From: a virus
Virus record (IMG/VR): IMGVR_UViG_3300040801_002121
Reading direction: 5' to 3' (one strand)
Length of the DNA: 64,000 bases
Positions 37,734 to 62,421 of this stretch are shown in pieces. The translations under genes were made by a program, and so were the position numbers. A model generated the notes under the pieces. It was not told where the DNA came from and did no database searches. It saw only the letters and a list, made by a program, of their open reading frames with translations. Numbering within the stretch: the stretch's first letter is position 1; each line of letters opens with the position of its first letter.

Positions 37734-37762
37734 TTGACACGAATCGGTTCACTGTGCATAAC
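37734..37762 (+). promoter_or_regulatory. promoter of the recombinase gene
   Basis: TTGACA (37734-37739), 17 nt, CATAAC (37757-37762). Confidence 0.5.
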
Positions 37763-37795
37763 GGTGATACCGAAACAACAACGAGGAGTGAACTT

Positions 37796-38425
37796 ATGGC
37801 TACCAAGCGTGCCAAGACCCTGAACGACAAGCAGTTTGCCAAGATGTGCGACGTGGCTCGCGACATCTCGCCGTTGCCTGAGCGTGACATTCTCATGCTC
37901 GCTCTGTCATTCAAGGCTGGTCTTCGTATTGGCGAGATCGCCAAGATTGACCTTGATCATATGCTCGACATTGAAGGTGACATCGCCGACACTATCAACG
38001 TGTTCTCGCATGTTGGTAAGCGTCACCGCGAACGCACCTTGCCCATGCACCCACTGGTGCGCGATGCTCTCGAAGACTTCATGAAAGCCTACCCCAGCGC
38101 TGAGTTTGTGGCGATCTCGTCGCAACCGTTTCGTTGGGTATTGGCTCGTGGTGAAGAAATCCCAGCCGATGCTGAGCACCGTCGTGCGACCGTCAACGCC
38201 ATGACGAAAGCGTTCAAGAACATTGCCAAAGAAGCTGGGTTCAAAGGCGTCAGCACTCACTCTGGCCGTCGCACCTTTGGCACCAAGCTGGCTCGACAGG
38301 CCAACAAAGACAACCACACCACGATTCGCGATGTGCAGCGTTGCTTGGGCCACGCTCACCTCGAAACGACCGAAGCTTACATCGATGTCTCGGAAGATGT
38401 CCGCGACCTCGTTGCCGCTGTTTGA
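37796..38425 (+). CDS. int: tyrosine recombinase/integrase, catalytic domain only (210 aa)
   Basis: R (AGLRIGEI), HxxR (HSGRRTF), and H..Y (LGHAHLETTEAYI). No N-terminal core-binding domain. Confidence 0.8.
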   Translation: MATKRAKTLNDKQFAKMCDVARDISPLPERDILMLALSFKAGLRIGEIAKIDLDHMLDIEGDIADTINVFSHVGKRHRERTLPMHPLVRDALEDFMKAYPSAEFVAISSQPFRWVLARGEEIPADAEHRRATVNAMTKAFKNIAKEAGFKGVSTHSGRRTFGTKLARQANKDNHTTIRDVQRCLGHAHLETTEAYIDVSEDVRDLVAAV

Positions 38426-39004: not shown

Positions 39005-39063
39005 AGAGCTTGCGAATCAGCGAGAGGGTCGCTAACACGATCCAACCACTCGTCAACCGACAG

Positions 39064-39099
39064 GCGGCCGTCATCGAAAGATGGCGGCCGTTGGTTTTT
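39064..39099 (+). terminator. rho-independent terminator
   Basis: Stem GCGGCCGTCAT/ATGGCGGCCG(T), then TTGGTTTTT. Confidence 0.7.
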
Positions 39100-39142
39100 A
39101 ACAAGGGTAGACAACTTTTTTCGCATCAGTGCAAATTAGTTG

Positions 39143-39171
39143 TTGACATAGAGGGCAAGTATCACTATACA
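39143..39171 (+). promoter_or_regulatory. promoter of the large non-coding RNA
   Basis: GCAAATTAGTTG-TTGACA (39143-39148), 17 nt, TATACA (39166-39171). Confidence 0.65.
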
Positions 39172-39738
39172 CCCTCTTCTCGACGCGATCGAGAGCTTAT
39201 TGAGAGGACTTCCGGCCAAGCGACGGTTTGGTTTGAGCGCCTGACGGGGCCAGTGAAGTAAACGGGGTCCTCACAGTAAGCTCTTGGAGCTACGAGATTC
39301 CCGCCTGAGGGAGATACGCACGGGCAACCGTGTTGAAAGAGGGTATGGCCACATAACCTCGCCAGTTTACGGATTGGTCAATTCAGGCAAGCGCAGCTTG
39401 ACCCGCGAGGGTCGTTCTATCCGCTGATCTCCTTCCAGAGGTCATGATAGGATAAGCTGGAAATCAGATGCAGGTCCCGAAGGGGATATGAATTGGGTAA
39501 CTCCGGATTCAGAAAGGGAGGCTTGGCGGCCTCCGCCTCATGCCAATCTGGTTGACAGGGGAAGCTAACGTGTAGGGCTCAGGTTCGAGGCTTAGCGGCC
39601 AAGGGCGGTGTCCAGTAGGAAGGGCGAAAGTCCTGACCGACCGTTCTATTAGCCTTAGCGGGTGAACGAATATGAGGTGTCTGACATTCCGTCGGTGGAA
39701 ACACTTATGGACTCAGGTGGCAGCACATCTCAGTGGCT

Positions 39739-39812
39739 TGCAATCTAGCATAATTGGTTAATGCAACTGACTCTTAATCAGTAGATTATTGGTTCAATCC
39801 CAATGATTTGTA
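39739..39812 (+). other. nested tRNA-Lys(CUU)-shaped module, AT-rich, defective acceptor stem, no CCA
   Basis: D arm GCAT/ATGC; anticodon arm ACTGA-CTCTTAA-TCAGT; T arm ATTGG-TTCAATC-CCAAT. Acceptor TGCAATC vs GATTTGT pairs at only 4 of 7 positions. 24/74 G+C. Confidence 0.55.
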
Positions 39813-40184
39813 AACGCAAAGATTGCCACGGCAGTGCGCCGAAAACGCCTAATGCTACCGGGGAAACCTAATGTAGCGCAAGCTGACCTCGCAAGGGAAA
39901 GCCTGTTTAGTGCAAGACGATTCGTTGGGGCTTAGCGGCTCCTTAATGGCGGGAAACCGTCAGCGGGAAGGAAAGCGCTGAAAAACGCACTGTGTCGCCG
40001 CAAACGCCAGCGGCCCCGTGAGAACCGGGAAAATTGGCGGCGTTGGTCGTAAACATGGGTAGCCGGTTTCCGGTCCTGTGTGGATAAGTCGGCAAGGTGG
40101 CCCGCAAGGTCATCGTAATCCGACGAATGGACGATCTGGCAAGGGCCTAATCTCAGCCCGCGCTACCACTGTTCAAGGTGGCTT

Positions 40185-40285
40185 ACAGGAACCATGGGGC
40201 GCATTAGGCCGATGCGTTTCCTTGGTGGAAGCCGGGCTTGCCATAGCCCGGTGGGAAGTTCGATCCCTCCGTCCATGGTTCCTGT
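40185..40285 (+). other. nested tRNA-like four-hairpin junction closed by a 13-bp helix
   Basis: ACAGGAACCATGG (40185-40197) pairs with CCATGGTTCCTGT (40273-40285). Inside are CGCAT/ATGCG, TTTC/GAAG, CGGGC/GCCCG hairpins and the T-arm look-alike GGAAG-TTCGATC-CCTCC. Confidence 0.55.
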
Positions 40286-40624
40286 AAATCACCCGTAACG
40301 CGGCCCCTCTTGCAGCAAAGCTGTTGGGCCTCACTAACCCGGCTCCGGACAGGCGAGAGAAGTAGTGACCTCCCGGCGACACGGTAAGCTTCGAGGTGCC
40401 ACGTTACAAGTGATGGTGCCCAAGGTCGGCGCAGCGGGGAGGTTTAGCTAACTTCCTTCACGTGCCCGCAGGCAAATACCGGTCCTAGTTGCTCGATCAC
40501 GCAGGCCGGATAATCTCCAGAGGCAGAAGCATCGAGCCGTCCATCTGGGGAATATGGGAAGCGCTGCAACTTGCTGCGTCGTCCTTGGCTACCAACTTAT
40601 TTTTGCCCTCAAGTCTTTTTTCTA

Positions 40625-40653
40625 TTGACAAGCCGACGCAGTTCGGTTATCAT
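40625..40653 (+). promoter_or_regulatory. promoter, first tRNA transcription unit
   Basis: TTGACA (40625-40630), 17 nt, TATCAT (40648-40653). Followed by the conserved TCAAGACGCGG..CCCGCAAA leader. Confidence 0.7.
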
Positions 40654-40858: not shown

Positions 40859-40935
40859 CTGGGGTTAGCTCAGTCGGTAGAGCGCCCGGTTTGGGACCGG
40901 GAGGATCGGAGGTTCGAGCCCTCCACTCCAGACCA
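40859..40935 (+). tRNA. tRNA-Pro(TGG)
   Basis: Acceptor CTGGGGT/ACTCCAG (C1:G72); anticodon arm CCCGG-TTTGGGA-CCGGG; T arm GGAGG-TTCGAGC-CCTCC; A73; encoded CCA. Confidence 0.85.
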
Positions 40936-40942
40936 GTTTTAT

Positions 40943-41021
40943 CAGGCGGTGGAGAAGTCTGGCCGTTCTCGCCTCCCTCGGACGGAGGAGCCCGTAGGTT
41001 CAAATCCTACTCGCCTGACCA
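40943..41021 (+). tRNA. tRNA-Pro(CGG)
   Basis: Acceptor CAGGCGG/TCGCCTG; D stem GAGA/TCTC with an 11-nt loop; anticodon arm CCTCC-CTCGGAC-GGAGG; T arm GTAGG-TTCAAAT-CCTAC; CCA. Confidence 0.8.
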
Positions 41022-41022
41022 T

Positions 41023-41092
41023 AGCAGTGAAGTAGTTTGACCGGGGGCTCATAACCCTTAGGTTGGTGGCGCACCTCCACCCACTGCTACCA
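41023..41092 (+). tRNA. aberrant tRNA(CAT)-like, reduced D arm and non-canonical T loop
   Basis: Acceptor AGCAGTG/CACTGCT is perfect. Anticodon arm GGGGG-CTCATAA-CCCTT. T arm GGTGG-CGCACCT-CCACC (no TTC). Only 11 nt where the D arm should be. Encoded CCA. Confidence 0.5.
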
Positions 41093-41139
41093 GTTTCGTC
41101 CCCGGTTTCCGTCAAATCGGAAGGGACAAAGAAGTTCAT

Positions 41140-41215
41140 AGGCGATTAGCTCAGCGGTAGAGCGGGGTCTTTACACGTCCCGTCAGCGGCGGTTCGATCC
41201 CGTCATCGCCTACCA
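41140..41215 (+). tRNA. tRNA-Val(TAC)
   Basis: Acceptor AGGCGAT/ATCGCCT; anticodon loop TTTACAC; T arm GGCGG-TTCGATC-CCGTC; CCA. Confidence 0.85.
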
Positions 41216-41224
41216 AAGTTAAAT

Positions 41225-41301
41225 CCACGAGTAGTTCAGTCTGGTAGAACGTCCGCCTGATTAGCGGTATGTCGTAGGTTCAAATCCTACCTCGTGGTCC
41301 A
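41225..41301 (+). tRNA. tRNA-Ile(GAT)
   Basis: Acceptor CCACGAG/CTCGTGG; anticodon loop CTGATTA; T arm GTAGG-TTCAAAT-CCTAC; CCA. Confidence 0.85.
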
Positions 41302-41451
41302 GATAAGATAGAAGGCTGGAATAATGCCTGAAACGCGAGGGTTAGTCTCCTCGTAAGAGCGAGAACAATAGACCGAACCTGCGCTGGCGGATGAGTTGAC
41401 GACTCGCAATCCCAGTTAGCTTAGTAGGTTGAGTTCTCGCTAAAAGTTCAA

Positions 41452-41527
41452 GGGGCTGTAGCTCAGATGGGAGAGCGCCGGGCTTGCACCTCGGAGGCCG
41501 TCGGTTCGATCCCGACCAGTTCCACCA
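41452..41527 (+). tRNA. tRNA-Ala(TGC)
   Basis: Acceptor GGGGCTG/CAGTTCC with G3:U70; anticodon loop CTTGCAC; T arm GTCGG-TTCGATC-CCGAC; CCA. Confidence 0.9.
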
Positions 41528-41532
41528 GTTCG

Positions 41533-41561
41533 TTGACAAGGCTCGTCAACACGTGTATACT
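41533..41561 (+). promoter_or_regulatory. consensus-like promoter abutting tRNA-Asn
   Basis: TTGACA, 17 nt, TATACT. The predicted start falls at or inside the tRNA-Asn 5' end (41564), so its role is unclear. Confidence 0.4.
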
Positions 41562-41563
41562 AT

Positions 41564-41639
41564 TGGGTAGTGGCAGAGTGGTAATGTGCCCGACTGTTAA
41601 TCGGTGACCTCGCTGGTTCGATCCCAGCCTACCCAGCCA
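41564..41639 (+). tRNA. tRNA-Asn(GTT)
   Basis: Acceptor TGGGTAG/CTACCCA; anticodon loop CTGTTAA; T arm GCTGG-TTCGATC-CCAGC; G73; CCA. Confidence 0.85.
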
Positions 41640-41655
41640 GTATATAGGAGTTTCC

Positions 41656-41967
41656 ATGGGCCAACAACGTCTGAAATTGTCATATCGTCGTGGCGGTCTT
41701 CGAACCGATCACGAGACGCCGCCGCCGAAGCCTGATAATTCATGGCATGGCGTTCGTCAGTTCTGGACGCGGGCTTACGATGGGCTCTATTCGAACGATT
41801 ACGATCGTGGAGTGACAGACGCTCAGGCTGATCTCGACGAAGAGGTCACGACGCGCAGAGAAGCCTTGCTCTCCACGTCCAGTGCGAATAAGGACAAGGC
41901 ATGGGAAGCTTACCGCGACGGGTTCGAGGATACGCTTCGCAAGAACGACGGAACAACGCTTCGTTAG
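41656..41967 (+). CDS. hypothetical protein inside the tRNA island
   Basis: TAGGAG RBS 6 nt upstream of the ATG; 103 aa. Stop overlaps the 5' end of tRNA-Val(GAC) by 10 nt. Confidence 0.55.
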   Translation: MGQQRLKLSYRRGGLRTDHETPPPKPDNSWHGVRQFWTRAYDGLYSNDYDRGVTDAQADLDEEVTTRREALLSTSSANKDKAWEAYRDGFEDTLRKNDGTTLR

Positions 41968-42033
41968 CTCAGTGGTAGTAGCGCTCCCTTGACATGGGAG
42001 AGGCCGGATGTTCGAACCATCCACGAAGCACCA
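41958..42033 (+). tRNA. tRNA-Val(GAC)
   Basis: Acceptor GCTTCGT/ACGAAGC; anticodon arm CTCCC-TTGACAT-GGGAG; T arm GGATG-TTCGAAC-CATCC; CCA. Confidence 0.85.
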
Positions 42034-42223
42034 ATCCCTCAGACTGGGGGTAGACGAGCCGACCATGGCAGCGGACTTCGCGAGCCGTCCCCATGTTGGG
42101 TTGTCGTCGAAACGGAAGCGGCGCAGGCCACGGAACGCCTTTACACCGGTGAGGGCATGATCGATCGCCGTGAGAGCTTGCGCCGCTTCTACGATAAAAA
42201 TTACGGTGATAGGAAATTAGTGG

Positions 42224-42252
42224 TTGACATTCGTAACCGAATCACTTATCAT
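42224..42252 (+). promoter_or_regulatory. promoter, second copy of the promoter-leader module
   Basis: TTGACA (42224-42229), 17 nt, TATCAT (42247-42252), then TCAAGACGCGGAATATCCCGCAAAC. Confidence 0.7.
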
Positions 42253-42407
42253 CATTGGCATCAAGACGCGGAATATCCCGCAAACAGTTTAAGGAATTGG
42301 AAAACGCTATGACCTTTGGACGCACCAAACGAGATCGCCGGGAAGGCGATGAACGAGGTTTTACCTCGTAACCGGTGGTGCGTGCCTTGCTACTGGTTTG
42401 ATTTGTT

Positions 42408-42483
42408 GGATCAGTAGCTCAGTAGGCAGAGCGACGGGCTCTTAACCCGTAGGTCGTGGGATCGTTTCCCACCTGATCCTCCA
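42408..42483 (+). tRNA. tRNA-Lys(CTT), T loop ATCGTTT (A54/U58 swap)
   Basis: Acceptor GGATCAG/CTGATCC; anticodon arm ACGGG-CTCTTAA-CCCGT; T arm GTGGG-ATCGTTT-CCCAC; CCA. Confidence 0.8.
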
Positions 42484-42502
42484 AGTCAAATCAGAAGTTT
42501 TG

Positions 42503-42536
42503 AACGCTCCATCGGATAGCCCGGTGGGGCGTTTTT
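42503..42536 (+). terminator. hairpin + TTTTT
   Basis: AACGCTCCATC..GGTGGGGCGTT, then TTTTCG. Confidence 0.55.
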
Positions 42537-42554
42537 CGTGTTCCCGGTTCGTGT

Positions 42555-42631
42555 GGACCGGTAGCTCAGTAGGTAGAGCGGCGGGCTTTTAATCCGCGTC
42601 GTCGTGAGTTCGAACCTCACCCGGTCTGCCA
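42555..42631 (+). tRNA. tRNA-Lys(TTT)
   Basis: Acceptor GGACCGG/CCGGTCT; anticodon arm GCGGG-CTTTTAA-TCCGC; T arm GTGAG-TTCGAAC-CTCAC; CCA. Confidence 0.85.
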
Positions 42632-42646
42632 AAAATTAGACAGGAA

Positions 42647-42721
42647 GCGGGCGTAGCTCAGTGGTAGAGCGCTGCGTTGCCAACGCCGAGGTCGCGGGAT
42701 CGTAACCCGCCGCCCGCTCCA
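42647..42721 (+). tRNA. tRNA-Gly(GCC), T loop ATCGTAA (A54/U58 swap)
   Basis: Acceptor GCGGGCG/CGCCCGC; anticodon loop TTGCCAA; T arm GCGGG-ATCGTAA-CCCGC; U73; CCA. Confidence 0.8.
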
Positions 42722-42743
42722 GTCGCCAGTGATGAATGATGAT

Positions 42744-42820
42744 GCGGGTGTAGCTTAATGGCGAGAGCGGCTGGTTTCCACCCAGTCTAGGTGTCGGTTC
42801 GAGTCCGTCCACCCGCTCCA
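42744..42820 (+). tRNA. tRNA-Gly(TCC)
   Basis: Acceptor GCGGGTG/CACCCGC; anticodon arm GCTGG-TTTCCAC-CCAGT; T loop TTCGAGT; CCA. Confidence 0.85.
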
Positions 42821-42833
42821 TCATTTATTACAA

Positions 42834-42909
42834 GGAAGCGTAGCTCAGTTGGTAGAGTAGGGGATTGTCTATCCCAAGGTCGCGGGTTCGAACCCCGTCG
42901 TTTCCGCCA
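42834..42909 (+). tRNA. tRNA-Asp(GTC)
   Basis: Acceptor GGAAGCG/CGTTTCC; anticodon loop TTGTCTA; T arm GCGGG-TTCGAAC-CCCGT; G73; CCA. Confidence 0.85.
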
Positions 42910-42912
42910 GTT

Positions 42913-43053
42913 TGTAGTGTAGTTTAAGCTCCATAGGAGAGTGCGGGATCACGACCTGCCTCAAACAGGAGCACCGGCCTTCGTGAAGCCGGGGTATTAA
43001 AACAGCCACCACGTCAGGTGGAAAATGCAGGTGAAAGGCCTGTCACTACGCCA
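42913..43053 (+). other. oversized (~140 nt) tRNA-shaped RNA of unknown identity
   Basis: Ends pair like an acceptor stem (TGTAGTG / CACTACG) followed by CCA. Internal hairpins: GCGGG-ATCACGA-CCTGC, CCGGC-CTTCGTGAA-GCCGG, CCACC-ACGTCA-GGTGG, GCAGG-TGAAAGG-CCTGT. Confidence 0.4.
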
Positions 43054-43060
43054 GTTTACC

Positions 43061-43137
43061 GCCCCGTTGGTCTAGCGGTTCAGGACGCCCGGTTCTCAGC
43101 CGGGAGGACGCGAGTTCGAACCTCGCACGGGGCACCA
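43061..43137 (+). tRNA. tRNA-Glu(CTC)
   Basis: Acceptor GCCCCGT/ACGGGGC; anticodon arm CCCGG-TTCTCAG-CCGGG; T arm GCGAG-TTCGAAC-CTCGC; CCA. Confidence 0.88.
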
Positions 43138-43156
43138 GTTTGTTTGTTAAGTTCAC

Positions 43157-43234
43157 GTGGCGGTCCTATAACCGGTCTAATAGCTCTGACTTTCAATCAG
43201 AGGAATGCGGGTTCGAATCCCGTTCGCCACACCA
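43157..43234 (+). tRNA. tRNA-Glu(TTC)
   Basis: Acceptor GTGGCGG/TCGCCAC; D stem CTAT/ATAG; anticodon arm TCTGA-CTTTCAA-TCAGA; T arm GCGGG-TTCGAAT-CCCGT; CCA. Confidence 0.85.
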
Positions 43235-43253
43235 AGTTGATTCAAAAGTTAAT

Positions 43254-43330
43254 GCCCTTGTAGCTCAGTGGATTAGAGCAGTTGGCTACGAACCATCAGG
43301 TCGGGAGTTCGAATCTCTCCAAGGGCTCCA
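43254..43330 (+). tRNA. tRNA-Arg(ACG)
   Basis: Acceptor GCCCTTG/CAAGGGC; anticodon loop CTACGAA; T arm GGGAG-TTCGAAT-CTCTC; CCA. Confidence 0.85.
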
Positions 43331-43342
43331 GTTAATGTGTTA

Positions 43343-43418
43343 GGTGATGTAGCTCAGTTGGTAGAGCGGGAGCCTGAAAAGCTTCGCGTCGGAGGTTCAA
43401 GTCCTTCCTTCACCACCA
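43343..43418 (+). tRNA. tRNA-Phe(GAA)
   Basis: Acceptor GGTGATG/CTTCACC (one mismatch); anticodon arm GGAGC-CTGAAAA-GCTTC; T arm GGAGG-TTCAAGT-CCTTC; CCA. Confidence 0.85.
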
Positions 43419-43423
43419 TGTAT

Positions 43424-43495
43424 GCGCTCGCCGTGGATCGGGCTCTGGGCCTTCTAAGCCCACAGGCGAGCGTTCGATTCGCTCCGAGCGCTCCA
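43424..43495 (+). tRNA. tRNA-Arg(TCT) with shortened D arm
   Basis: Acceptor GCGCTCG/CGAGCGC; anticodon arm TGGGC-CTTCTAA-GCCCA; T arm GAGCG-TTCGATT-CGCTC; CCA. Only 15 nt between the acceptor and anticodon stems. Confidence 0.6.
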
Positions 43496-43504
43496 TATTA
43501 AAAC

Positions 43505-43533
43505 TTGACTATTCCGCAATTCTTAGTTACCAT
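43505..43533 (+). promoter_or_regulatory. promoter (spacer carries CCGCAATTCTT)
   Basis: TTGACT (43505-43510), 17 nt, TACCAT (43528-43533). Confidence 0.55.
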
Positions 43534-43559
43534 TCGGTCACTCAAGACAGGATTTTGAC

Positions 43560-43745
43560 GTGGCCAATTATGGACGTGTTGTTCACGCGGGACGTAGTGT
43601 ATGGCTTCCACCTGAACTCGTGCGAGAGATCAGGCAAGGCGGGCTGACCAACGAGCAGATTCAAACGCTCCTTGCACTGGCCGACGAACTGGATTCTGTT
43701 GATCTAATATCCACGTTTGAAACCGCCTTAAAGGATAGTGCCTAA
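43560..43745 (+). CDS. hypothetical protein
   Basis: GTG start; 61 aa; stop coupled to the next gene. Confidence 0.5.
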   Translation: MANYGRVVHAGRSVWLPPELVREIRQGGLTNEQIQTLLALADELDSVDLISTFETALKDSA

Positions 43746-44254
43746 TGTCGCTCGTTAATCAAGTCCAACTCCTAGCTCAACGTATCGCCGCTGAATGCAC
43801 CGACATTCGGACTCAGATCACCGACACCACCGGTGATTTGGCGGCACTGACCACAACAGACAAGACAAACCTTGTTGGTGCGGTCAATGAACTCAAGACA
43901 CTGATCGATCAGATCGATGCGACCGATATTATTGATGACACGACAGTCGGCACTGATACGACTTTTTCTTCGCAGAAGATCACCGATGACATCAATGTCG
44001 CGATCGCCGGTCTTGTCGATGGTGCGCCGGGTGCTCTCGATACGCTGAACGAACTCGCTGCGGCGCTGGGCGACAACGAGAGCGCCATTGCAACGATCAC
44101 CAATGGTTTGGCCAATCGTCTGCGTATTGATGCGCTCCAGACGCTTACCGCCCAACAGCAAGAATTTGGTCGCACCAATCTCGATGTCTATTCGAAAGCA
44201 GAAATCGGCGACATCGATACTGATTTTGTCGCGGTGTTCGAATCGGGCCTGTAA
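43745..44254 (+). CDS. tail-fibre-repeat (Phage_fiber_2-like) protein
   Basis: LVDGAPGALDTLNELAAALGDNESAI motif, typical of phage tail-fibre repeats; coiled N-terminus. Confidence 0.5.
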   Translation: MSLVNQVQLLAQRIAAECTDIRTQITDTTGDLAALTTTDKTNLVGAVNELKTLIDQIDATDIIDDTTVGTDTTFSSQKITDDINVAIAGLVDGAPGALDTLNELAAALGDNESAIATITNGLANRLRIDALQTLTAQQQEFGRTNLDVYSKAEIGDIDTDFVAVFESGL

Positions 44255-44539
44255 GTGCTCGCCGATCGGATTTCTTCCCTAGCGGAAGCTGTCCGGGCTC
44301 GCTTTGATGCCCTGACGATCGAAGACACGATTCGTATCGTGTCTTCGTTCTCCGAACTAGACGACGAAGAAGTTGGCGATTTGCTGATCTTCTCTTTGGG
44401 AGAAGGTCGCGAGCGTTATGGCCTCTACCAACGACAACCCGATGGACAGTATGTCCGTCTCAGCACGACTGGGCGTTCCTACCGAGTCGGCGCACAAACA
44501 CGTGATGAGCCGTGGTGGCGTTGGTGGATTTGGTGGTAA
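44255..44539 (+). CDS. hypothetical protein
   Basis: GTG start right after the previous stop; 94 aa. Confidence 0.5.
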   Translation: MLADRISSLAEAVRARFDALTIEDTIRIVSSFSELDDEEVGDLLIFSLGEGRERYGLYQRQPDGQYVRLSTTGRSYRVGAQTRDEPWWRWWIWW

Positions 44540-44569
44540 ACAAAAATTGCCCTTAGGCCAAAATAATCC

Positions 44570-44598
44570 TTGACTTCCGAATCGTTTCTGCTTATACT
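44570..44598 (+). promoter_or_regulatory. promoter
   Basis: A/T-rich upstream region, TTGACT (44570-44575), 17 nt, TATACT (44593-44598). Confidence 0.7.
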
Positions 44599-44690
44599 CC
44601 GCCGCATGAAGACACAGACCCACACCTTACAGCCGCTTACGCAGGCTTTGCTATGCCAACATTGGTATAGCACGAGTTCATCCCTCTAAG

Positions 44691-44720
44691 GGAGTGGTTC
44701 TGACGCGCCACTCCTTTGTT
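44691..44720 (+). terminator. hairpin + T-rich tail
   Basis: GGAGTGG-ttctgacgcg-CCACTCC, then TTTGTT. Confidence 0.5.
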
Positions 44721-44722
44721 AA

Positions 44723-44806
44723 GGAGGGTGGCGCACAGGGTGCAAACGGGTCTCGAAAACCCGGCTATCCGAGAGGTTAAGGGTTCGATTCCTTCACCCT
44801 CCGCCA
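44723..44806 (+). tRNA. tRNA-Ser(CGA)
   Basis: Acceptor GGAGGGT/ACCCTCC; anticodon arm CGGGT-CTCGAAA-ACCCG; long variable arm; T loop TTCGATT; G73; CCA. Confidence 0.8.
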
Positions 44807-44817
44807 ACAAGTTTCAA

Positions 44818-44849
44818 AGCGTCATTCCTTCCGGGAGTGGCGCTTTTTT
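44818..44849 (+). terminator. rho-independent terminator
   Basis: AGCGTCATTCC..GGGAGTGGCGCT (G:U-tolerant stem), then TTTTTT. Confidence 0.65.
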
Positions 44850-44857
44850 CGTTTTAT

Positions 44858-44942
44858 CCGTGGGTTCAGTCAGGGGCACTGACAGACGGCCTGTAAAGCC
44901 TGACCTTAACCGGGAGTAGTTCGACTCTACACCCACGGACCA
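44858..44942 (+). tRNA. tRNA-Tyr(GTA), irregular anticodon stem
   Basis: Acceptor CCGTGGG/CCCACGG; D arm CAGT-CAGGGGC-ACTG; loop CTGTAAA flanked by only GGC/GCC; T loop TTCGACT; CCA. Confidence 0.6.
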
Positions 44943-44984
44943 AATTCAATGTAATCAAGGAGATTGCTAAGTTTACGATCTGAC

Positions 44985-45063
44985 GTGCCGCTGGGCAAAT
45001 TTGGTAAAGTCGCTCGCCTCAGAAGCGAGAGTTCTCCCGGTTCGAGTCCGGGGCGGCGCACCA
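44985..45063 (+). tRNA. tRNA-Leu(CAG) with short (6-nt) variable region
   Basis: Acceptor GTGCCGC/GCGGCGC; Leu-type D loop AAATTTGGTAAA; anticodon arm CTCGC-CTCAGAA-GCGAG; variable AGTTCT; T arm CCCGG-TTCGAGT-CCGGG; A73; CCA. Confidence 0.75.
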
Positions 45064-45070
45064 GATCGAT

Positions 45071-45154
45071 GGGGATATGGCGAAATTTGGTAAACGTAGC
45101 GTCTTGAGAGGGCGTGGCTTCGGCTTCTGGGTTCAAGTCCCAGTATCCCCACCA
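45071..45154 (+). tRNA. tRNA-Leu(GAG)
   Basis: Acceptor GGGGATA/TATCCCC; anticodon arm GCGTC-TTGAGAG-GGCGT; 11-nt variable arm; T arm CTGGG-TTCAAGT-CCCAG; CCA. Confidence 0.82.
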
Positions 45155-45163
45155 AGTTCGAAT

Positions 45164-45238
45164 GCCGGATTAGCTCAGTGGTAGTAGCAGGGCCGTCGTA
45201 ACGCCAAGACAAGAGTTCGATTCTCTTATCCGGCTCCA
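45164..45238 (+). tRNA. tRNA-Thr(CGT), weak anticodon stem
   Basis: Acceptor GCCGGAT/ATCCGGC; anticodon loop GTCGTAA; T arm AAGAG-TTCGATT-CTCTT; CCA. Confidence 0.7.
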
Positions 45239-45253
45239 TCGTTAAAATATGTG

Positions 45254-45281
45254 TTGACATATAATTTGCAGGGAATATACG
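45254..45281 (+). promoter_or_regulatory. promoter
   Basis: TTGACA (45254-45259), 16 nt, TATACG (45276-45281). Confidence 0.55.
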
Positions 45282-45297
45282 CAGTAACAGATTTCAT

Positions 45298-45377
45298 GGT
45301 GTTGGTAGCTCAGTTGGTTAGAGCGGGAGGTTGTGAACCTCTGTCAGTCGTGGGTTCAAGTCCCATCCTTCACCCCA
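45298..45377 (+). tRNA. tRNA-His(GTG)
   Basis: G-1 present and C73; anticodon arm GGAGG-TTGTGAA-CCTCT; T arm GTGGG-TTCAAGT-CCCAT; CCA. Acceptor has two U:U mismatches. Confidence 0.75.
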
Positions 45378-45382
45378 GTTAT

Positions 45383-45448
45383 GAGGCCACGCCCCAGACT
45401 TAGACAGGGGCCGGTTGATCAGCGGGTTCAAGTCCCGGTGGCCTCCCA
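45383..45448 (+). tRNA. aberrant 64-66 nt tRNA-like element lacking one arm
   Basis: Acceptor GAGGCCA/TGGCCTC is perfect; T arm (G)CGGG-TTCAAGT-CCCG(G). The only other helix is GCCCC(A)G-ACTTAGA-C(A)GGGGC, followed by an 11-nt linker. Confidence 0.4.
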
Positions 45449-45449
45449 T

Positions 45450-45527
45450 TGCACGTCTTGCTGGCTGGTCCGGCCGCCTGACTCTGAATCAGGAAAGATA
45501 GAGGTTCGAGTCCTCGGCGTGCATCCA
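45450..45527 (+). tRNA. tRNA-Gln(CTG)
   Basis: U1:A72 acceptor TGCACGT/GCGTGCA; anticodon arm CCTGA-CTCTGAA-TCAGG; T loop TTCGAGT; CCA. Confidence 0.82.
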
Positions 45528-45578
45528 GTTTGCGGAGATAGTTATGAAGACAGTTGAAAGCCCAGATCGACAACCTAA

Positions 45579-45652
45579 TGCCCCTTCGGCTAATGGTAAG
45601 TCAGCGCCCTTTGAAGGCGAAGACGTTGGTTCGATCCCAACAGGGGCATCCA
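45579..45652 (+). tRNA. tRNA-Gln(TTG)
   Basis: U1:A72 acceptor TGCCCCT/AGGGGCA; anticodon loop CTTTGAA; T arm GTTGG-TTCGATC-CCAAC; CCA. Confidence 0.85.
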
Positions 45653-45668
45653 GACAAGTAGGCGAGTG

Positions 45669-45812
45669 ATGGTAGCACCCATCGACCGCCTGAGAGCAGT
45701 TCCAGTGGACGGCAAGGAAGGCACGTTCATTCTGGTGGACAAGGTAACAGGAGAGCCGTTCGATGTAGCGGCCGAGATCAACAAGGCGTTCATCGCCGGA
45801 AAGTGCAGGTAA
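45669..45812 (+). CDS. possible 47-aa protein (MVAPIDRLRAVPVDGKEGTFILVDKVTGEPFDVAAEINKAFIAGKCR)
   Basis: Short ORF between two tRNAs with a weak RBS. Below the ORF-track cutoff. Confidence 0.35.
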   Translation: MVAPIDRLRAVPVDGKEGTFILVDKVTGEPFDVAAEINKAFIAGKCR

Positions 45813-45815
45813 TTC

Positions 45816-45903
45816 GGAGTGTGCTGGGGTTGGCTCCCCACGCGGTTTGCTAAATCGTAGTGGCCTTCACGGGTCAGAGGTTCGATGCCTCCACGCTCCT
45901 CCA
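45816..45903 (+). tRNA. tRNA-Ser(GCT)
   Basis: Acceptor GGAGTGT/ACGCTCC; anticodon arm GCGGT-TTGCTAA-ATCGT; long variable arm; T loop TTCGATG; CCA. Confidence 0.82.
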
Positions 45904-45910
45904 ACTTTAT

Positions 45911-45985
45911 GCGACGGTGGCGGAGTATTATCGCGCTTGGCTGCAAACTAAGAGAACGCCGGTGAGATTCCGGCCCGTCGCTCCA
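45911..45985 (+). tRNA. tRNA-Cys(GCA) with non-canonical D and T loops
   Basis: Acceptor GCGACGG/CCGTCGC; anticodon arm CTTGG-CTGCAAA-CTAAG; T arm GCCGG-TGAGATT-CCGGC (no TTC); D loop AGTATTA (no GG); CCA. Confidence 0.75.
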
Positions 45986-46000
45986 GATCAAAGACACTGT

Positions 46001-46074
46001 GGGGGTGTCGTCTAACGGTAAGACCCCGGCTTCCAACTCCGGTAATTAGGGTTCGACTCCTTACTCCCCCGCCA
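46001..46074 (+). tRNA. tRNA-Trp(CCA)
   Basis: Acceptor GGGGGTG/CTCCCCC; anticodon loop TTCCAAC; T arm TAGGG-TTCGACT-CCTTA; G73; CCA. Confidence 0.82.
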
Positions 46075-46083
46075 AGTCAACAT

Positions 46084-46159
46084 GCCGGTGTAGCTCAGAG
46101 GCCAGAGCAGCGCTCTTGTAAAGCGAAGGTCGTCGGTTCGACTCCGACCTCCGGCTCCA
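46084..46159 (+). tRNA. tRNA-Thr(TGT)
   Basis: Acceptor GCCGGTG/CTCCGGC; anticodon loop CTTGTAA; T arm GTCGG-TTCGACT-CCGAC; CCA. Confidence 0.85.
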
Positions 46160-46228
46160 TTTTCCACTTGACAAGTTCCCCCTTATCGTTACAGGTGTTG
46201 TCACCGAAACGAATCAAAGGAGGTTTTC

Positions 46229-46345
46229 ATGATCATCGGAGGTTTATTTTTCTTGTTCTGTCTTTACCTCATTGGAGGTAAAGAACTGGCAGGAGGTGTT
46301 GTCAAGCTTGTTTTAGGTGTGGGCCTCCTCCTTCTGTTTCTCTGA
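46229..46345 (+). CDS. 38-aa hydrophobic membrane peptide (MIIGGLFFLFCLYLIGGKELAGGVVKLVLGVGLLLLFL)
   Basis: Strong RBS AAAGGAGG 7 nt upstream. Two hydrophobic segments. Below the ORF-track cutoff. Confidence 0.65.
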   Translation: MIIGGLFFLFCLYLIGGKELAGGVVKLVLGVGLLLLFL

Positions 46346-46348
46346 ACC

Positions 46349-46422
46349 AGTCCTGTAGCTTAATGGTAAAGCTGGGGCCTCATAAGCCTTAGATGGTGGT
46401 TCAATTCCATCCGGGACTACCA
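46349..46422 (+). tRNA. tRNA-Met(CAT) (elongator or Ile2-type)
   Basis: Acceptor AGTCCTG/CGGGACT; anticodon arm GGGGC-CTCATAA-GCCTT; T arm GGTGG-TTCAATT-CCATC; CCA. Confidence 0.82.
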
Positions 46423-46423
46423 T

Positions 46424-46501
46424 GCGGGCGTGGCGAAATTGGTAAACGCACGGGATTTAAGCTTCCGCAAACTGAGAGTTCGAGTCTCTCCGCCCGCACC
46501 A
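46424..46501 (+). tRNA. tRNA-Leu(TAA) with short (6-nt) variable region
   Basis: Acceptor GCGGGCG/CGCCCGC; Leu-type D loop AAATTGGTAAA; anticodon arm CGGGA-TTTAAGC-TTCCG; variable CAAACT; T arm GAGAG-TTCGAGT-CTCTC; A73; CCA. Confidence 0.78.
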
Positions 46502-46509
46502 TTTTCTGC

Positions 46510-46538
46510 TTGACAAATCCGAATCAGTCTGGCAGTAT
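46510..46538 (+). promoter_or_regulatory. promoter of the tmRNA transcription unit
   Basis: TTGACA (46510-46515), 17 nt, CAGTAT (46533-46538). Confidence 0.55.
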
Positions 46539-46544
46539 TCTCAC

Positions 46545-46930
46545 ATGATCGTAATTCGATCGACTGAATTTTGGTCTGGACGCGGGGGCAGAGCCCGCCA
46601 CCTCCACCATCTATTCTCGCAGGCGGTAAGTGTCCGAATGCGAAGCTCATGACCGGGGAGCAACAGGTTGTCCCGGCGCGATGCGAGGATAGTTGATGGG
46701 GGTGAATTTAGGATCGACAGGCCCGATGAAAGAAGAGCGCGATCAAGCTTGACCGACTTTAACAGGTCACCGCATGTAAATGCAATCGACAACGTAGTTG
46801 TCGCCAACGACAACGACGCCGAGGTTCGCCTCGCCGCCTGAGTTGGCAAAATCCCTGCGGCGATCAACTCCGTAGGTGGCGTATTGGCTCCACGTAGCAA
46901 CAGGACGGGCCAGTTAGTTTTATGGACCCT
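46545..46930 (+). ncRNA. ssrA: two-piece, circularly permuted tmRNA (acceptor piece ~46545-46609, coding piece from 46698; 3' end uncertain, may reach ~47030)
   Basis: Upstream T arm GCGGG-GGCAGAG-CCCGC plus CACCTCC-ACCA (46582-46609). Downstream GGGGGTG-AATTTAGGATCGACAGG (46698-) pairs perfectly with it, including G3:U70. Tag ORF GCC..TGA at 46803-46841 encodes ANDNDAEVRLAA. Confidence 0.8.
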
Positions 46931-47035
46931 GCACCGCTACGAGTATGTGCGAGAGTCACTACCAAGGGCCGGATCGCAACCGGTTCCAGTCGTGGCAAGG
47001 CATTTGTTTACGAATGGGGGTCCGCCAAGTTACCA

Positions 47036-59854: not shown

Positions 59855-61339
59855 TCATTTCCCCTCGAATTTGTCCCGGAACTCAGCCGACCGGAGCCGC
59901 ACTTCCTCCCATGATTGTTGGTTGTGAAGTTGGCCATTCTCATAAACGAGATTCAGCCAGTCGGCTTGGCCCTCCCATGGGTCAATTCCCAGACCCGTAT
60001 TGTCGGAGTAGGTTAGCAAGGTGCCTCCGGGCTCTGGTTGGACGACCTTGAACCGACCGGCTTTGGAAGCCTTGCTGGGATCGGTTGCCACAGTCTTTTG
60101 AACAGCCATAGTCGAACCCGCGATAGTGACTTCGCTCGTTTTCATGGCAAAGCGGTGCGTATCTCGCTCAGCTTGGTGAACGAGCAATCCGCCGCCTGAT
60201 CCGAAGACGAGATTGTCCATCGACCATGTGTGGTAGGCGGCACGAGCCATGATGCGCCGCAGCGAATCTTCATTGATGCCATCGCCTTGGATGACCCGGA
60301 CGTAATCAGGCAAGACCCGGTAGCCCTTGTCATTCGTTTGAGTTCCGACAAGCTTACCTGCCAGTTCCAGCACGTGGATGACGTTGACGATTGGATCACC
60401 TGAGTCTGGGCGCAGGACGACGCGCATGTTCGATTGCTTGAGCCGATCGAGCAAACCGCCCTCGCTCTCAGGACTGAGCCACATCTTAATCGCTTCGTCC
60501 TGATCATAGGTATCGATGACGACCGAGACAGGGAAGCGAGAACCGTCAGGCATCGCCTTATCGCCATGAATGGCCAGAATACGCTCAAAGAACGCTTTCT
60601 CGTTGTCACGTCCCCACGACGTTGTGACGGAGTGCTCGGTCGCAGGGATCGAGAAGCCGGGCATACTATCGGTTGGATAGGCGTGTTTGGCGAAACGGAT
60701 TCCCATCAGGTTGTCGGTCACTTGGAAGTTGACGAGGTGTGCCATACCTCCGAGAGCCGCAGCCTCGGTCGAGTGAGCGCCGCGTGCGCCGAAATCAACG
60801 AGTGCAAAGTCAGCCGGAGCTTCCCCAGTCTCGGTGTAATAGTGGTTCATCATCTTCCACCAGCGCAGCGAGCGCGTCGCAATCGTTGTTGGGTAGTGAA
60901 CGGCCCGCAGCAGCATGGTCTCGACGTAAGCCGCCATGCCTGCCAGTTCAGGGTCCGTGGATTCCACGGTGACAAGGACGCAGCCTTGTCCCACCACCAC
61001 ACCTTCTGGAAGCGCACGGACACGGACTGGAATGTATCCATTGTGGACATCAACAACCCGTTCCCACGCCGTGCGGTTGAACGGAATGCCGTGGGCGGTA
61101 AGTTCCACTTCGGCCTCGTCGATCATAGCGAGCGTCACTTGCTGCATGAGGAAGTAACGCAGCGCATATTGAAGGCCGAGAAACTGCACATACGAGAACT
61201 CGCCGCCGCGCCGTGCTTCGATGTAGCCGTAGCTGTTCTCGAAATCAGGATGCTCAAACGTCCAGTGCGTTGCCTTGTAGGTGTCCGCGTTAAGGATCGG
61301 CTGGGTGAGTAGATCACCAAGGGTATTAGCTGGTTGCAT
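59855..61339 (-). CDS. nadV: nicotinamide phosphoribosyltransferase (NAMPT/NadV)
   Basis: VDFGARGAHS and LRPDSGDP motifs; 494 aa. Confidence 0.85.
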   Translation of the reverse strand: MQPANTLGDLLTQPILNADTYKATHWTFEHPDFENSYGYIEARRGGEFSYVQFLGLQYALRYFLMQQVTLAMIDEAEVELTAHGIPFNRTAWERVVDVHNGYIPVRVRALPEGVVVGQGCVLVTVESTDPELAGMAAYVETMLLRAVHYPTTIATRSLRWWKMMNHYYTETGEAPADFALVDFGARGAHSTEAAALGGMAHLVNFQVTDNLMGIRFAKHAYPTDSMPGFSIPATEHSVTTSWGRDNEKAFFERILAIHGDKAMPDGSRFPVSVVIDTYDQDEAIKMWLSPESEGGLLDRLKQSNMRVVLRPDSGDPIVNVIHVLELAGKLVGTQTNDKGYRVLPDYVRVIQGDGINEDSLRRIMARAAYHTWSMDNLVFGSGGGLLVHQAERDTHRFAMKTSEVTIAGSTMAVQKTVATDPSKASKAGRFKVVQPEPGGTLLTYSDNTGLGIDPWEGQADWLNLVYENGQLHNQQSWEEVRLRSAEFRDKFEGK

Positions 61340-61350
61340 GGGCGTCCTCC

Positions 61351-62421
61351 TTACTGAATGTTGAGGGTGTCGGCGAAGTGCCGGATGATGAGATAGTGGT
61401 CTTCGAACATCATATCGCGAGTTACCTCATCGATGTTCCAACACCGCGCTTCCTTGGCGTCGTCTGAGCCGATGACTTCAAGACGCTTCTGACCGGGCAA
61501 AATCCCGCCATAAGCCATGCCAATGGTCCGCATCCGGGTCGAGCGCCACGGATTGTCGAGAAGCTTCGATCCCCGGATCGCGACCTTGATGTCGTCAATG
61601 TCCAGATCAGGGTTGCAATCGAGGATTGCCGTTTCTTCGGTAAATTCCCGGATCGCCGCCGCTTCGAAGCGCTCTTCGGGGTTGACGTGACCACCCGGTA
61701 ATGCCCACAGGCCTTTACCGGGAGCCTCGCCGCGCCGGACGAGAAACACGCCGCCTGCTTGAAACATGCACATGTCGGCCGTGATGTGGAAAGCAACGCC
61801 TTCACCGTGGTAGGGATGCGGTGGAAATTTCGCCGCTTCGCGCTGGTTGAACAGGAACTCTTCCTGCATCCGCTGAAACGCCATCGAGCCGACCCATTGC
61901 CGCAGGAAGACTTCGGAGCCCTTGGGCAGCCCCATCTTCTGGACAAGAGCGACACGCTCATCGGGGTCGTTGGTTTTGTAGAGCGTTTTGCGAATACCGG
62001 TCGAGGAGTAACCATCGCGCCAGTCCGACGTGTTGGTGCGCTCCCACTGGGGGAACAGCCGCAGATAGTAGCCCGAACTGTCCTTCGAGTGTCCGACCAG
62101 TGTGACGCTGGGATCATCGAGAGAAAGGCGTTTGGCTTCGCCCCGGACCTGTCGCTGGACTTCGGCCACCCACTTGAGATCGGAGTCCTGATCCTCGACA
62201 CCGAACAGGTAGACGCGATCATTCTCAAGCGCCGAGAGTGAGCCACGGACCATTTGCTTGACCTCATCGGCCGTGAACGGATTGCGGAAATTGATGGGCT
62301 CGTTGGCTGAGCCAATCATGACGAAGACATACTGGGCGACTTTTAGCGCCTCGTTGATATTGTGCAGGTGTTGCGGCCCGAACGGACGCGCCCGCATTGC
62401 AAAGACTGCGATGTCGAACAT
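61351..62421 (-). CDS. bifunctional NMN adenylyltransferase / Nudix ADP-ribose pyrophosphatase (NadM-Nudix type)
   Basis: N-terminal nucleotidyltransferase (RPFGPQHLHN, SSTGIRK). C-terminal Nudix box GGHVNPEERFEAAAIREFTEETA. Confidence 0.75.
   Translation of the reverse strand: MFDIAVFAMRARPFGPQHLHNINEALKVAQYVFVMIGSANEPINFRNPFTADEVKQMVRGSLSALENDRVYLFGVEDQDSDLKWVAEVQRQVRGEAKRLSLDDPSVTLVGHSKDSSGYYLRLFPQWERTNTSDWRDGYSSTGIRKTLYKTNDPDERVALVQKMGLPKGSEVFLRQWVGSMAFQRMQEEFLFNQREAAKFPPHPYHGEGVAFHITADMCMFQAGGVFLVRRGEAPGKGLWALPGGHVNPEERFEAAAIREFTEETAILDCNPDLDIDDIKVAIRGSKLLDNPWRSTRMRTIGMAYGGILPGQKRLEVIGSDDAKEARCWNIDEVTRDMMFEDHYLIIRHFADTLNIQ

Follow-up and report, generated by a model that had tools for sequence, protein, structure and literature searches.

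The window, the whole 64,000-nt stretch of viral DNA analysed here (IMG/VR record IMGVR_UViG_3300040801_002121), belongs to a lytic CbK-like Erythrobacter phage. Its only close cultured relatives were two isolates, the Erythrobacter phages vB_EliS-L02 (below, L02) and XM05; the former is described as a lytic CbK-like siphovirus with 29 tRNAs (PMC9127768). At the head of its tRNA array, the phage encodes a GOLLD RNA, a giant cage-forming phage RNA, and this RNA encloses a tRNA-shaped module of 74 nt. The features of the locus and its surroundings are listed below.

~39336..40160, + strand: whole GOLLD RNA (Rfam RF02032 and homology within the clade)
39336..39671, + strand: GOLLD 5' domain, variable and outside the Rfam model (sequence conservation in the clade)
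39672..39730, + strand: first hairpin of the conserved 3' half (cmscan alignment, Rfam model positions 1-64)
39717..39722, + strand: 5' strand of a long-range helix, GUGGCA (covariation with 39824-39829)
39731..39738, + strand: junction motif CAGUGGCU, directly 5' of the module; GUAGGUU-like in other GOLLDs
39739..39812, + strand: tRNA-like module with anticodon CUU; canonical D, anticodon and T arms, frayed acceptor end, no CCA
39812..39821, + strand: AAACGCAAAG motif, the 3' flank of the linker; kept in 13/15 distant GOLLDs
39824..39829, + strand: 3' strand of the long-range helix, UGCCAC (covariation)
39830..40159, + strand: rest of the conserved GOLLD 3' domain (Rfam RF02032 alignment)
40859-46501: array of free-standing tRNAs
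46517-46932, + strand: two-piece (permuted) tmRNA of alphaproteobacterial type at the end of the tRNA array, with tag peptide AIDNVVVANDNDAEVRLAA
51424-52665, + strand: RtcB RNA ligase (Pfam E 2e-124), 4.5 kb downstream of the tmRNA
59855-61339 and 61351-62421, both - strand: adjacent NAMPT-family and NUDIX-domain genes

The Rfam model RF02032 matched 39672-40159 over model positions 1-416 with no truncation (E = 8.6e-31, 114.8 bits). We found this match with relaxed thresholds; the curated gathering score is 150, so a default Rfam scan is silent on this GOLLD. The clade relatives scored 172.1 (L039), 157.6 (L041), 141.9 (L02) and 120.4 bits (XM05), and the same GOLLD is unannotated in the records of both L02 and XM05. 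The terminal motifs GUGGAUAAG...UAAUC...UAAUCUCA were located at 40080-40157 and CUAAUGC at 39859-39865, the motif set that marks a GOLLD. Homology to clade members began within 39292-39336 and stopped within 40127-40164. We place the 5' boundary only approximately, within 39292-39336, and the 3' end at 40158-40164. Within the 5' domain, to which helices P1-P13 of the family belong, sequence is conserved in XM05 and L041; L039 and L096 share part of it. No ORF of at least 60 aa fitted 39336-40160, a stretch of ~825 nt with no credible ORF and of normal length for a GOLLD. The tRNA array begins ~700 nt downstream, and the relatives that carry the RNA are phages.

The GOLLD is not fixed in this phage group. 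Three IMG/VR relatives (L003-L005) have a recombinase 85% identical to that of the window and the same tRNA array, and lack window positions 39025-40596; ~120 bp (about 7255-7373 in L005) replaces the block. Because they lack the whole block, the GOLLD is a presence/absence polymorphism. The ~440 nt that separate the array promoter from the end of the GOLLD (40160-40596) fall in the same indel block; they are only patchily conserved in L02 and take in an element closed by 13 bp at 40185-40285. ARAGORN and Rfam found neither a tRNA nor a known family in 40160-40596. A strong terminator-like hairpin (39063-39102, + strand) lies upstream of the GOLLD, and a simple scan from this terminator to the GOLLD 5' end found no sigma-70-like promoter. 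A near-consensus promoter-like site, TTGACA-17-TATCAT (40625-40653, + strand), stands at the head of the tRNA array.

RtcB is an enzyme of the tRNA-repair type. The NAMPT-family gene and its NUDIX-domain neighbour make up a pair of NAD-salvage type, such as phages deploy against defences that deplete NAD. Given these genes and the tmRNA, the phage invests heavily in the upkeep of tRNAs and translation, and a tRNA-related role for the GOLLD module is plausible.

GOLLD is among the largest structured RNAs of bacteria and phages. Homo-oligomeric nanocages have been reported by cryo-EM for the env-38 and S. agalactiae GOLLDs, and the 5' and 3' domains are separate structural units, of which the 3' domain can assemble without the other (bioRxiv 10.1101/2024.12.08.627333, PMC12990946). 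The env-38 structure has an unresolved linker in the interior of a 14-mer cage, and tRNAs occur in the linker of GOLLDs (bioRxiv 10.1101/2024.12.08.627333); linker tRNAs also feature in Kretsch et al. Kretsch et al. and a 2026 review (PMC12990946) name the variable linker J13/15, and the review cites Morgado 2020 for a tRNA-Phe in J13/15 of a Mycolicibacterium GOLLD. Because linker tRNAs are already in the literature, the module of the window is a known feature in a new lineage.

We observed that the module has the form of a tRNA-Lys(CUU), as had been predicted from the sequence. ARAGORN called tRNA-Lys(ctt) at 39739-39813, and the Rfam tRNA model scored 39740-39812 at 55.7 bits (gathering score 29), a value bracketed by the scores of the window's 29 free-standing tRNAs. 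Read directly, the D arm (GCAT/ATGC), the anticodon arm (ACTGA-CTCTTAA-TCAGT) and the T arm (ATTGG-TTCAATC-CCAAT) are all perfect. The D loop contains GG and the variable loop is 5 nt long. The 7-nt anticodon loop is fully canonical (C32 U33 CUU A37 A38), and both this loop and the discriminator A73 fit lysine identity. Over positions 8-63 (56 nt), the module is 82-84% identical to the tRNA-Lys of FelixO1-like phages. The phage has a second, free tRNA-Lys(CTT) at 42408 (ARAGORN), and the longest run that the two share is the 7-nt anticodon loop.

The acceptor end is different. In strict register 4/7 acceptor pairs form, as first described; the Rfam alignment gives six pairs and one bulged U. 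The module thus falls short of the seven-pair stem of a canonical tRNA-Lys(CUU), and the free-standing tRNAs of the window have seven pairs, a few of them five or six by an automatic measure. We confirmed that the module lacks a 3' CCA, the discriminator A being followed by AAACGC, whereas CCA is encoded at the end of 29/29 free-standing tRNAs. Its G+C content (24/74) is below that of the rest of the GOLLD (55.8%) and of the window (54.0%), so the richer context noted at the outset is real. MFE folding of the isolated 74 nt did not recover the cloverleaf, and the z-score was weak (-1.6). This is expected of an AT-rich tRNA, and we did not take it as evidence.

In the model alignment, the module falls where the sequence is unpaired and variable, after the first hairpin of the 3' half (which has an internal loop on its 3' strand) and before the consensus AAAGCAAAAG, with which the AAACGCAAAG at 39812-39821 agrees. 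The conserved flanks meet the module with almost no spacer, a GUAGGUU-like motif on the 5' side and AAACGCAAAG on the 3' side. By analogy with the literature, the junction motif at 39731-39738 is a putative kissing partner.

The original prediction had bracketed the module between GTGGC (39733-39737) and GCCAC (39825-39829). Both segments are present; their pairing with each other did not hold up. The true partner of the 3' segment is 39717-39722: GUGGCA, just 5' of a conserved GCAC, pairs with UGCCAC (39824-39829), just after AAACGCAAAG. Across 15 GOLLDs, all six pairs of this helix show double changes and 93% of cells are paired. We assign GCCAC to this helix because it covaries in every lineage. 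The proximal pairing is contradicted by L096, in which the 3' strand changes together with 39717-39722 and the proximal GTGGC stays fixed and mismatched. The module therefore sits in a loop closed by a conserved helix. The match to a GOLLD and the covarying closing helix bear out the earlier view of the module as a domain within a larger RNA and not as an ordinary free-standing tRNA gene.

A further candidate helix joins GCAATCT (39740-39746) to AGATTGC (39820-39826). Five clade members pair it without a mismatch, one of them (L041) through a compensated change, and two others form 6/7 pairs. We did not adopt it because it is absent outside the clade and competes with the long-range helix. GCAATCT consists of the 5' acceptor strand plus U8, and the pairing also competes with the acceptor stem. 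It may be a switch or a coincidence.

For comparison across the family, we scanned viral contigs with the terminal GOLLD motifs and obtained at least 120 loci, a sample biased by the search motif. In an Rfam check, 9/9 tested motif-scan loci were GOLLDs, six of them above the gathering score (including L039 and L041). Among the matches listed, ~112 candidates had enough upstream sequence, and ARAGORN placed a tRNA equidistant from the terminal motif in 20 (15 unique) of them. A tRNA-like module at the same site thus occurs in about one in six sampled GOLLDs. Linkers that lack a tRNA can be ~60 nt long, according to a rough, heuristic linker-length survey that resolved 48/112 loci. Four contigs (L021, L077, L114 and L125) carry an identical truncated GOLLD (e.g. 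L021:2697-3212), which lacks ~327 nt of 5' domain and the first hairpin. Its module is a tRNA-Lys(ctt) with 6/7 acceptor pairs, U73 and CCA; because of the missing 5' domain, this GOLLD may be a different case.

We aligned the 15 distinct modules and counted the D, anticodon and T stems together with the long-range helix. In these 15 sequences, 97.3% of cells were paired and 19/20 pairs showed changes on both sides. None of 500 shuffles reached the observed values, a statistic that overstates significance because related sequences are not independent. The safer measures are the slid controls, which paired in ~40% of cells, and the number of distinct pair types. The elbow is also kept in the modules: the D loop retains GG and the T loop retains TTCRA. 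L098 has GA and TTT at these places, so that both partners of the tertiary pair G19:C56 have changed together, to A19:U56. Judged by this alignment, selection keeps the stems of the D, anticodon and T arms, together with the elbow formed by the D and T loops. In the window copy AT-richness is derived, and compensated changes have preserved all stems.

The anticodon behaves differently from the stems. Within the close clade, the module flanks are identical for ~20 nt on each side, yet the anticodon loops differ. The window, L021 and L096 have CTCTTAA (Lys-CUU), XM05 has CGCTTAA with G33, L039 has CTTCTAA (Arg-UCU), L041 has CTTATAA (Ile-UAU), and L02 has a 9-nt loop, CTGTTCAAA. The anticodon at this site is therefore not conserved among sister GOLLDs as that of a canonical tRNA-Lys(CUU) would be. 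The array tRNAs of the clade phages keep their order and anticodons, and each phage has a free Lys-ctt. More distant modules carry GCA, ATG (twice), CTA, TCC, TGA and GCT; those with TGA and GCT lack the long arm of tRNA-Ser. Loops of 8 nt as well as 9 nt occur among the embedded modules, and 12/15 have U33 and a 7-nt loop. The modules of L079/L103 and L080 have A34-UG anticodons. The module of L082 (5866-5937, - strand) has the amber-suppressor-like anticodon CUA, on a contig that also carries a tmRNA and >15 tRNAs.

Using a lenient best-register measure, we compared the acceptor ends of the embedded modules with those of the free-standing tRNAs (626 distinct sequences) at these loci. All seven acceptor pairs formed in 2/15 embedded modules versus 546/626 free-standing tRNAs (Fisher P = 5e-10). 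The mismatches were concentrated (18/21) in the outermost pairs 1-72, 2-71 and 3-70. A CCA followed directly in 2/15 embedded modules versus 279/626 free-standing tRNAs (P = 0.017). Relative to its locus, mean G+C was 0.062 lower in embedded modules and 0.117 higher in free-standing tRNAs, with the window copy as the extreme case. On these comparisons, the anticodon triplet, the outer three acceptor pairs and the CCA end are not kept by selection.

Module and scaffold also differ in their relationships. The window and L02 are 53% identical in the tRNA body and 81% in the 3' domain, L021 and L041 are 61% and 92% identical, and the window and L021 are 75% and 70% identical. Because these identities disagree, they suggest that modules are exchanged through their invariant flanks, or else that rates are very uneven.

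A tyrosine recombinase lies near the module, as had been noted: a Phage_integrase-family protein of 223 aa is encoded at 37754-38425, 1.3 kb upstream. It comprises the catalytic Phage_integrase domain only and lacks arm- and core-binding domains. Many temperate phages integrate into tRNA genes. We searched a collection with one genome for each of 185,579 prokaryotic species. One module segment was scanned, the 3' 21-mer GGTTCAATCCCAATGATTTGT, and it had no exact match. The flank signature of the clade, used as a check for prophages and lysogens, also had no match in these genomes, and so no integrated copy was found among them. An exact 20-mer of the 3' flank had no match in IMG/VR.

A tRNA shape that is kept while the anticodon is free, the outer acceptor is open, CCA is absent and G+C is low is what would be expected of a cis-acting tRNA-shaped domain and not of a decoder gene. 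We consider it probable that the module is a tethered tRNA-shaped domain in the variable GOLLD linker, a mimic of a tRNA rather than a released decoder. Such a module would not be excised as an ordinary decoder; both its ends would stay covalently attached. With the outer acceptor pairs frayed, the two strands could pass on into the scaffold; because the module ends run into the scaffold within a few nucleotides, the open pairs are plausibly the point where the strands diverge. The module would probably be displayed in many copies on the inner face of the cage, if its position matches that in env-38, a different GOLLD. In that position it could mimic a tRNA and serve as a handle or bait for a factor that reads tRNA shape. 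Several observations run counter to this reading. The anticodon loop is flawless, A73 is present, and at 55.7 bits the module scores no worse than genuine tRNAs. Most modules (12/15) retain U33 and a 7-nt loop, and two (the L021 type and L122) have CCA. A missing encoded CCA is also not disqualifying where a CCA-adding enzyme exists.

The same observations favour a different explanation, in which the module is a functional tRNA-Lys(CUU), stored in or co-transcribed with the GOLLD, released by RNase P and 3' trimming, completed by a CCA-adding enzyme and used to decode AAG. The high tRNA model score, the canonical anticodon loop, A73 and the resemblance to real phage tRNA-Lys genes (FelixO1-like) all fit such a tRNA, as do the L021-type and L122 modules with CCA and 6-7 acceptor pairs. 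A nucleotidyltransferase and RtcB have been reported in L02 (PMC9127768), RtcB is present in the window, and an 'inhibited storage' idea for the linker tRNA has been raised (PMC12990946). However, a released tRNA would duplicate the free Lys-ctt at 42408, and its anticodon varies among sister phages in which the array tRNAs are conserved. The acceptor forms 4/7 pairs here and 7/7 in just two of the 15 modules, CCA is missing next to an array in which every tRNA has it, and the composition is AT-shifted, the opposite of real tRNAs. In the M. aubagnense GOLLD, the inner pseudo-tRNA was not detected as a separate RNA (PMC6582537). Taken with the evidence on both sides, we regard release as unlikely, though it is the alternative that fares best.

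A processing signal would explain the kept shape in another way. In the manner of tRNA punctuation or of MALAT1 mascRNA, the module could direct RNase P and/or RNase Z in cis, such that a cut separates the 5' and 3' domains of the GOLLD or opens the linker and the small product is disposable. Shape without anticodon conservation is the pattern expected of a processing signal. The two domains are separate units, the 3' domain assembles alone, and the long-range helix could hold the halves together after the cut. The outer acceptor pairs, which RNase P reads, are however the least conserved part of the module. About 5/6 of the GOLLD sample (among the matches listed) has no tRNA module, so a cut at the module is not essential to the family. 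We find this reading doubtful.

We hold a more specific form of the tethered mimic to be equally speculative. Here the embedded modules would be exchangeable cassettes that, at 10-14 copies per nanocage, serve as tethered tRNA decoys or recruitment handles, and their anticodon loops would change in an arms race and not by neutral drift. They might, for example, soak up a host defence nuclease that targets tRNAs, or hold a tRNA-processing or repair enzyme during infection. This reading draws on the incongruent identities of module and scaffold, the invariant flanks and the unusual anticodons (A34-UG, CUA and UAU), and on the presence of RtcB, a tmRNA and ~30 tRNAs in the same phage.

Alternatively, a tRNA gene may have landed in a tolerant, variable loop and now be a functionless, drifting pseudogene. 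The AT drift, the frayed acceptor, the missing CCA and the odd anticodons elsewhere (ATG, CTA, 9-nt and 8-nt loops) would suit a decaying relic, as would the variability of the linker and the absence of the module from most GOLLDs (among the matches listed). Neutral decay, however, would break the stems. The three internal stems are perfect at 53-75% identity within the clade through many compensated changes, the elbow nucleotides are kept, and one tertiary pair covaries. A relic is very improbable on this evidence. The original prediction also raised the idea that the module is a fragment captured from a host tRNA or an attP core, through which the nearby recombinase would insert the phage into a tRNA-Lys gene of the host. 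This idea has next to nothing left in its favour beyond the Phage_integrase-family protein 1.3 kb upstream: that protein is catalytic-domain-only, neither the 3' 21-mer nor the flank signature of the clade turned up in the 185,579 species genomes, the relative L02 is lytic (PMC9127768), L003-L005 keep the recombinase without 39025-40596, the module at 32% G+C is far from the G+C-rich tRNAs of the same phage, and it varies between sister phages by compensated changes, which an attP core that must match attB could not tolerate.

One of the few clues to what GOLLD does is the tRNA sometimes present in its linker. The family was only recently found to build nanocages of RNA alone, and two ideas have been published, tRNA storage by the cage and tRNA exposure. 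That tRNAs occur in the GOLLD linker was already known. What is new is the lineage, the CbK-like Erythrobacter phages, which is cultivable (isolates L02 and XM05) and in which the module can be compared between sister genomes, and the pattern of constraint on shape without constraint on decoding. This comparison argues that the tRNA shape, and not the ability to decode, is under selection. A loose hint thereby becomes a statement open to testing, in a system amenable to phage genetics. There is also a consequence for annotation: GOLLDs of this type score below the Rfam cut-off, so automated annotation misses them and would wrongly count the module inside them among the tRNA genes.

The module shares with tRNA-overlapping attP sites that a tRNA-derived sequence lies near a tyrosine recombinase gene in a phage. 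It differs in that it is a whole cloverleaf and not a 3' fragment, that site and recombinase are uncoupled, that the recombinase lacks arm-binding domains, and that identical host segments and lysogens were not found in the species genomes scanned with the 21-mer and the flank signature. The array tRNAs (40859-46501) resemble it in cloverleaf, elbow nucleotides and covariance-model score, and differ in having a 7-bp acceptor, an encoded CCA, G+C above the genome mean and conserved anticodons.

The closest likeness is to the linker tRNAs of the Mycolicibacterium and M. aubagnense GOLLDs. The RNA family is the same, as are the insertion site (past the first hairpin of the 3' half and ahead of AAAGCAAAAG) and the genomic setting at or inside phage-type tRNA arrays. 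In contrast to these, the GOLLD of the window is found in a CbK-like phage of a marine alphaproteobacterium and scores below the Rfam gathering cut-off, and its module is nominally Lys-CUU and unusually AT-rich, with an anticodon that toggles between sister phages. MALAT1 mascRNA, the 3' tRNA-like structures of plant viruses and the tRNA-like domain of tmRNA are, like this module, selected tRNA folds in a bigger RNA. In all of them shape outweighs the anticodon, a likeness for which we claim no homology. Those structures stand at the end of an RNA or are cut out of it, and several are aminoacylated, whereas the module described here is internal, tethered on both sides and without CCA, in an RNA of a family that forms homo-oligomeric cages.
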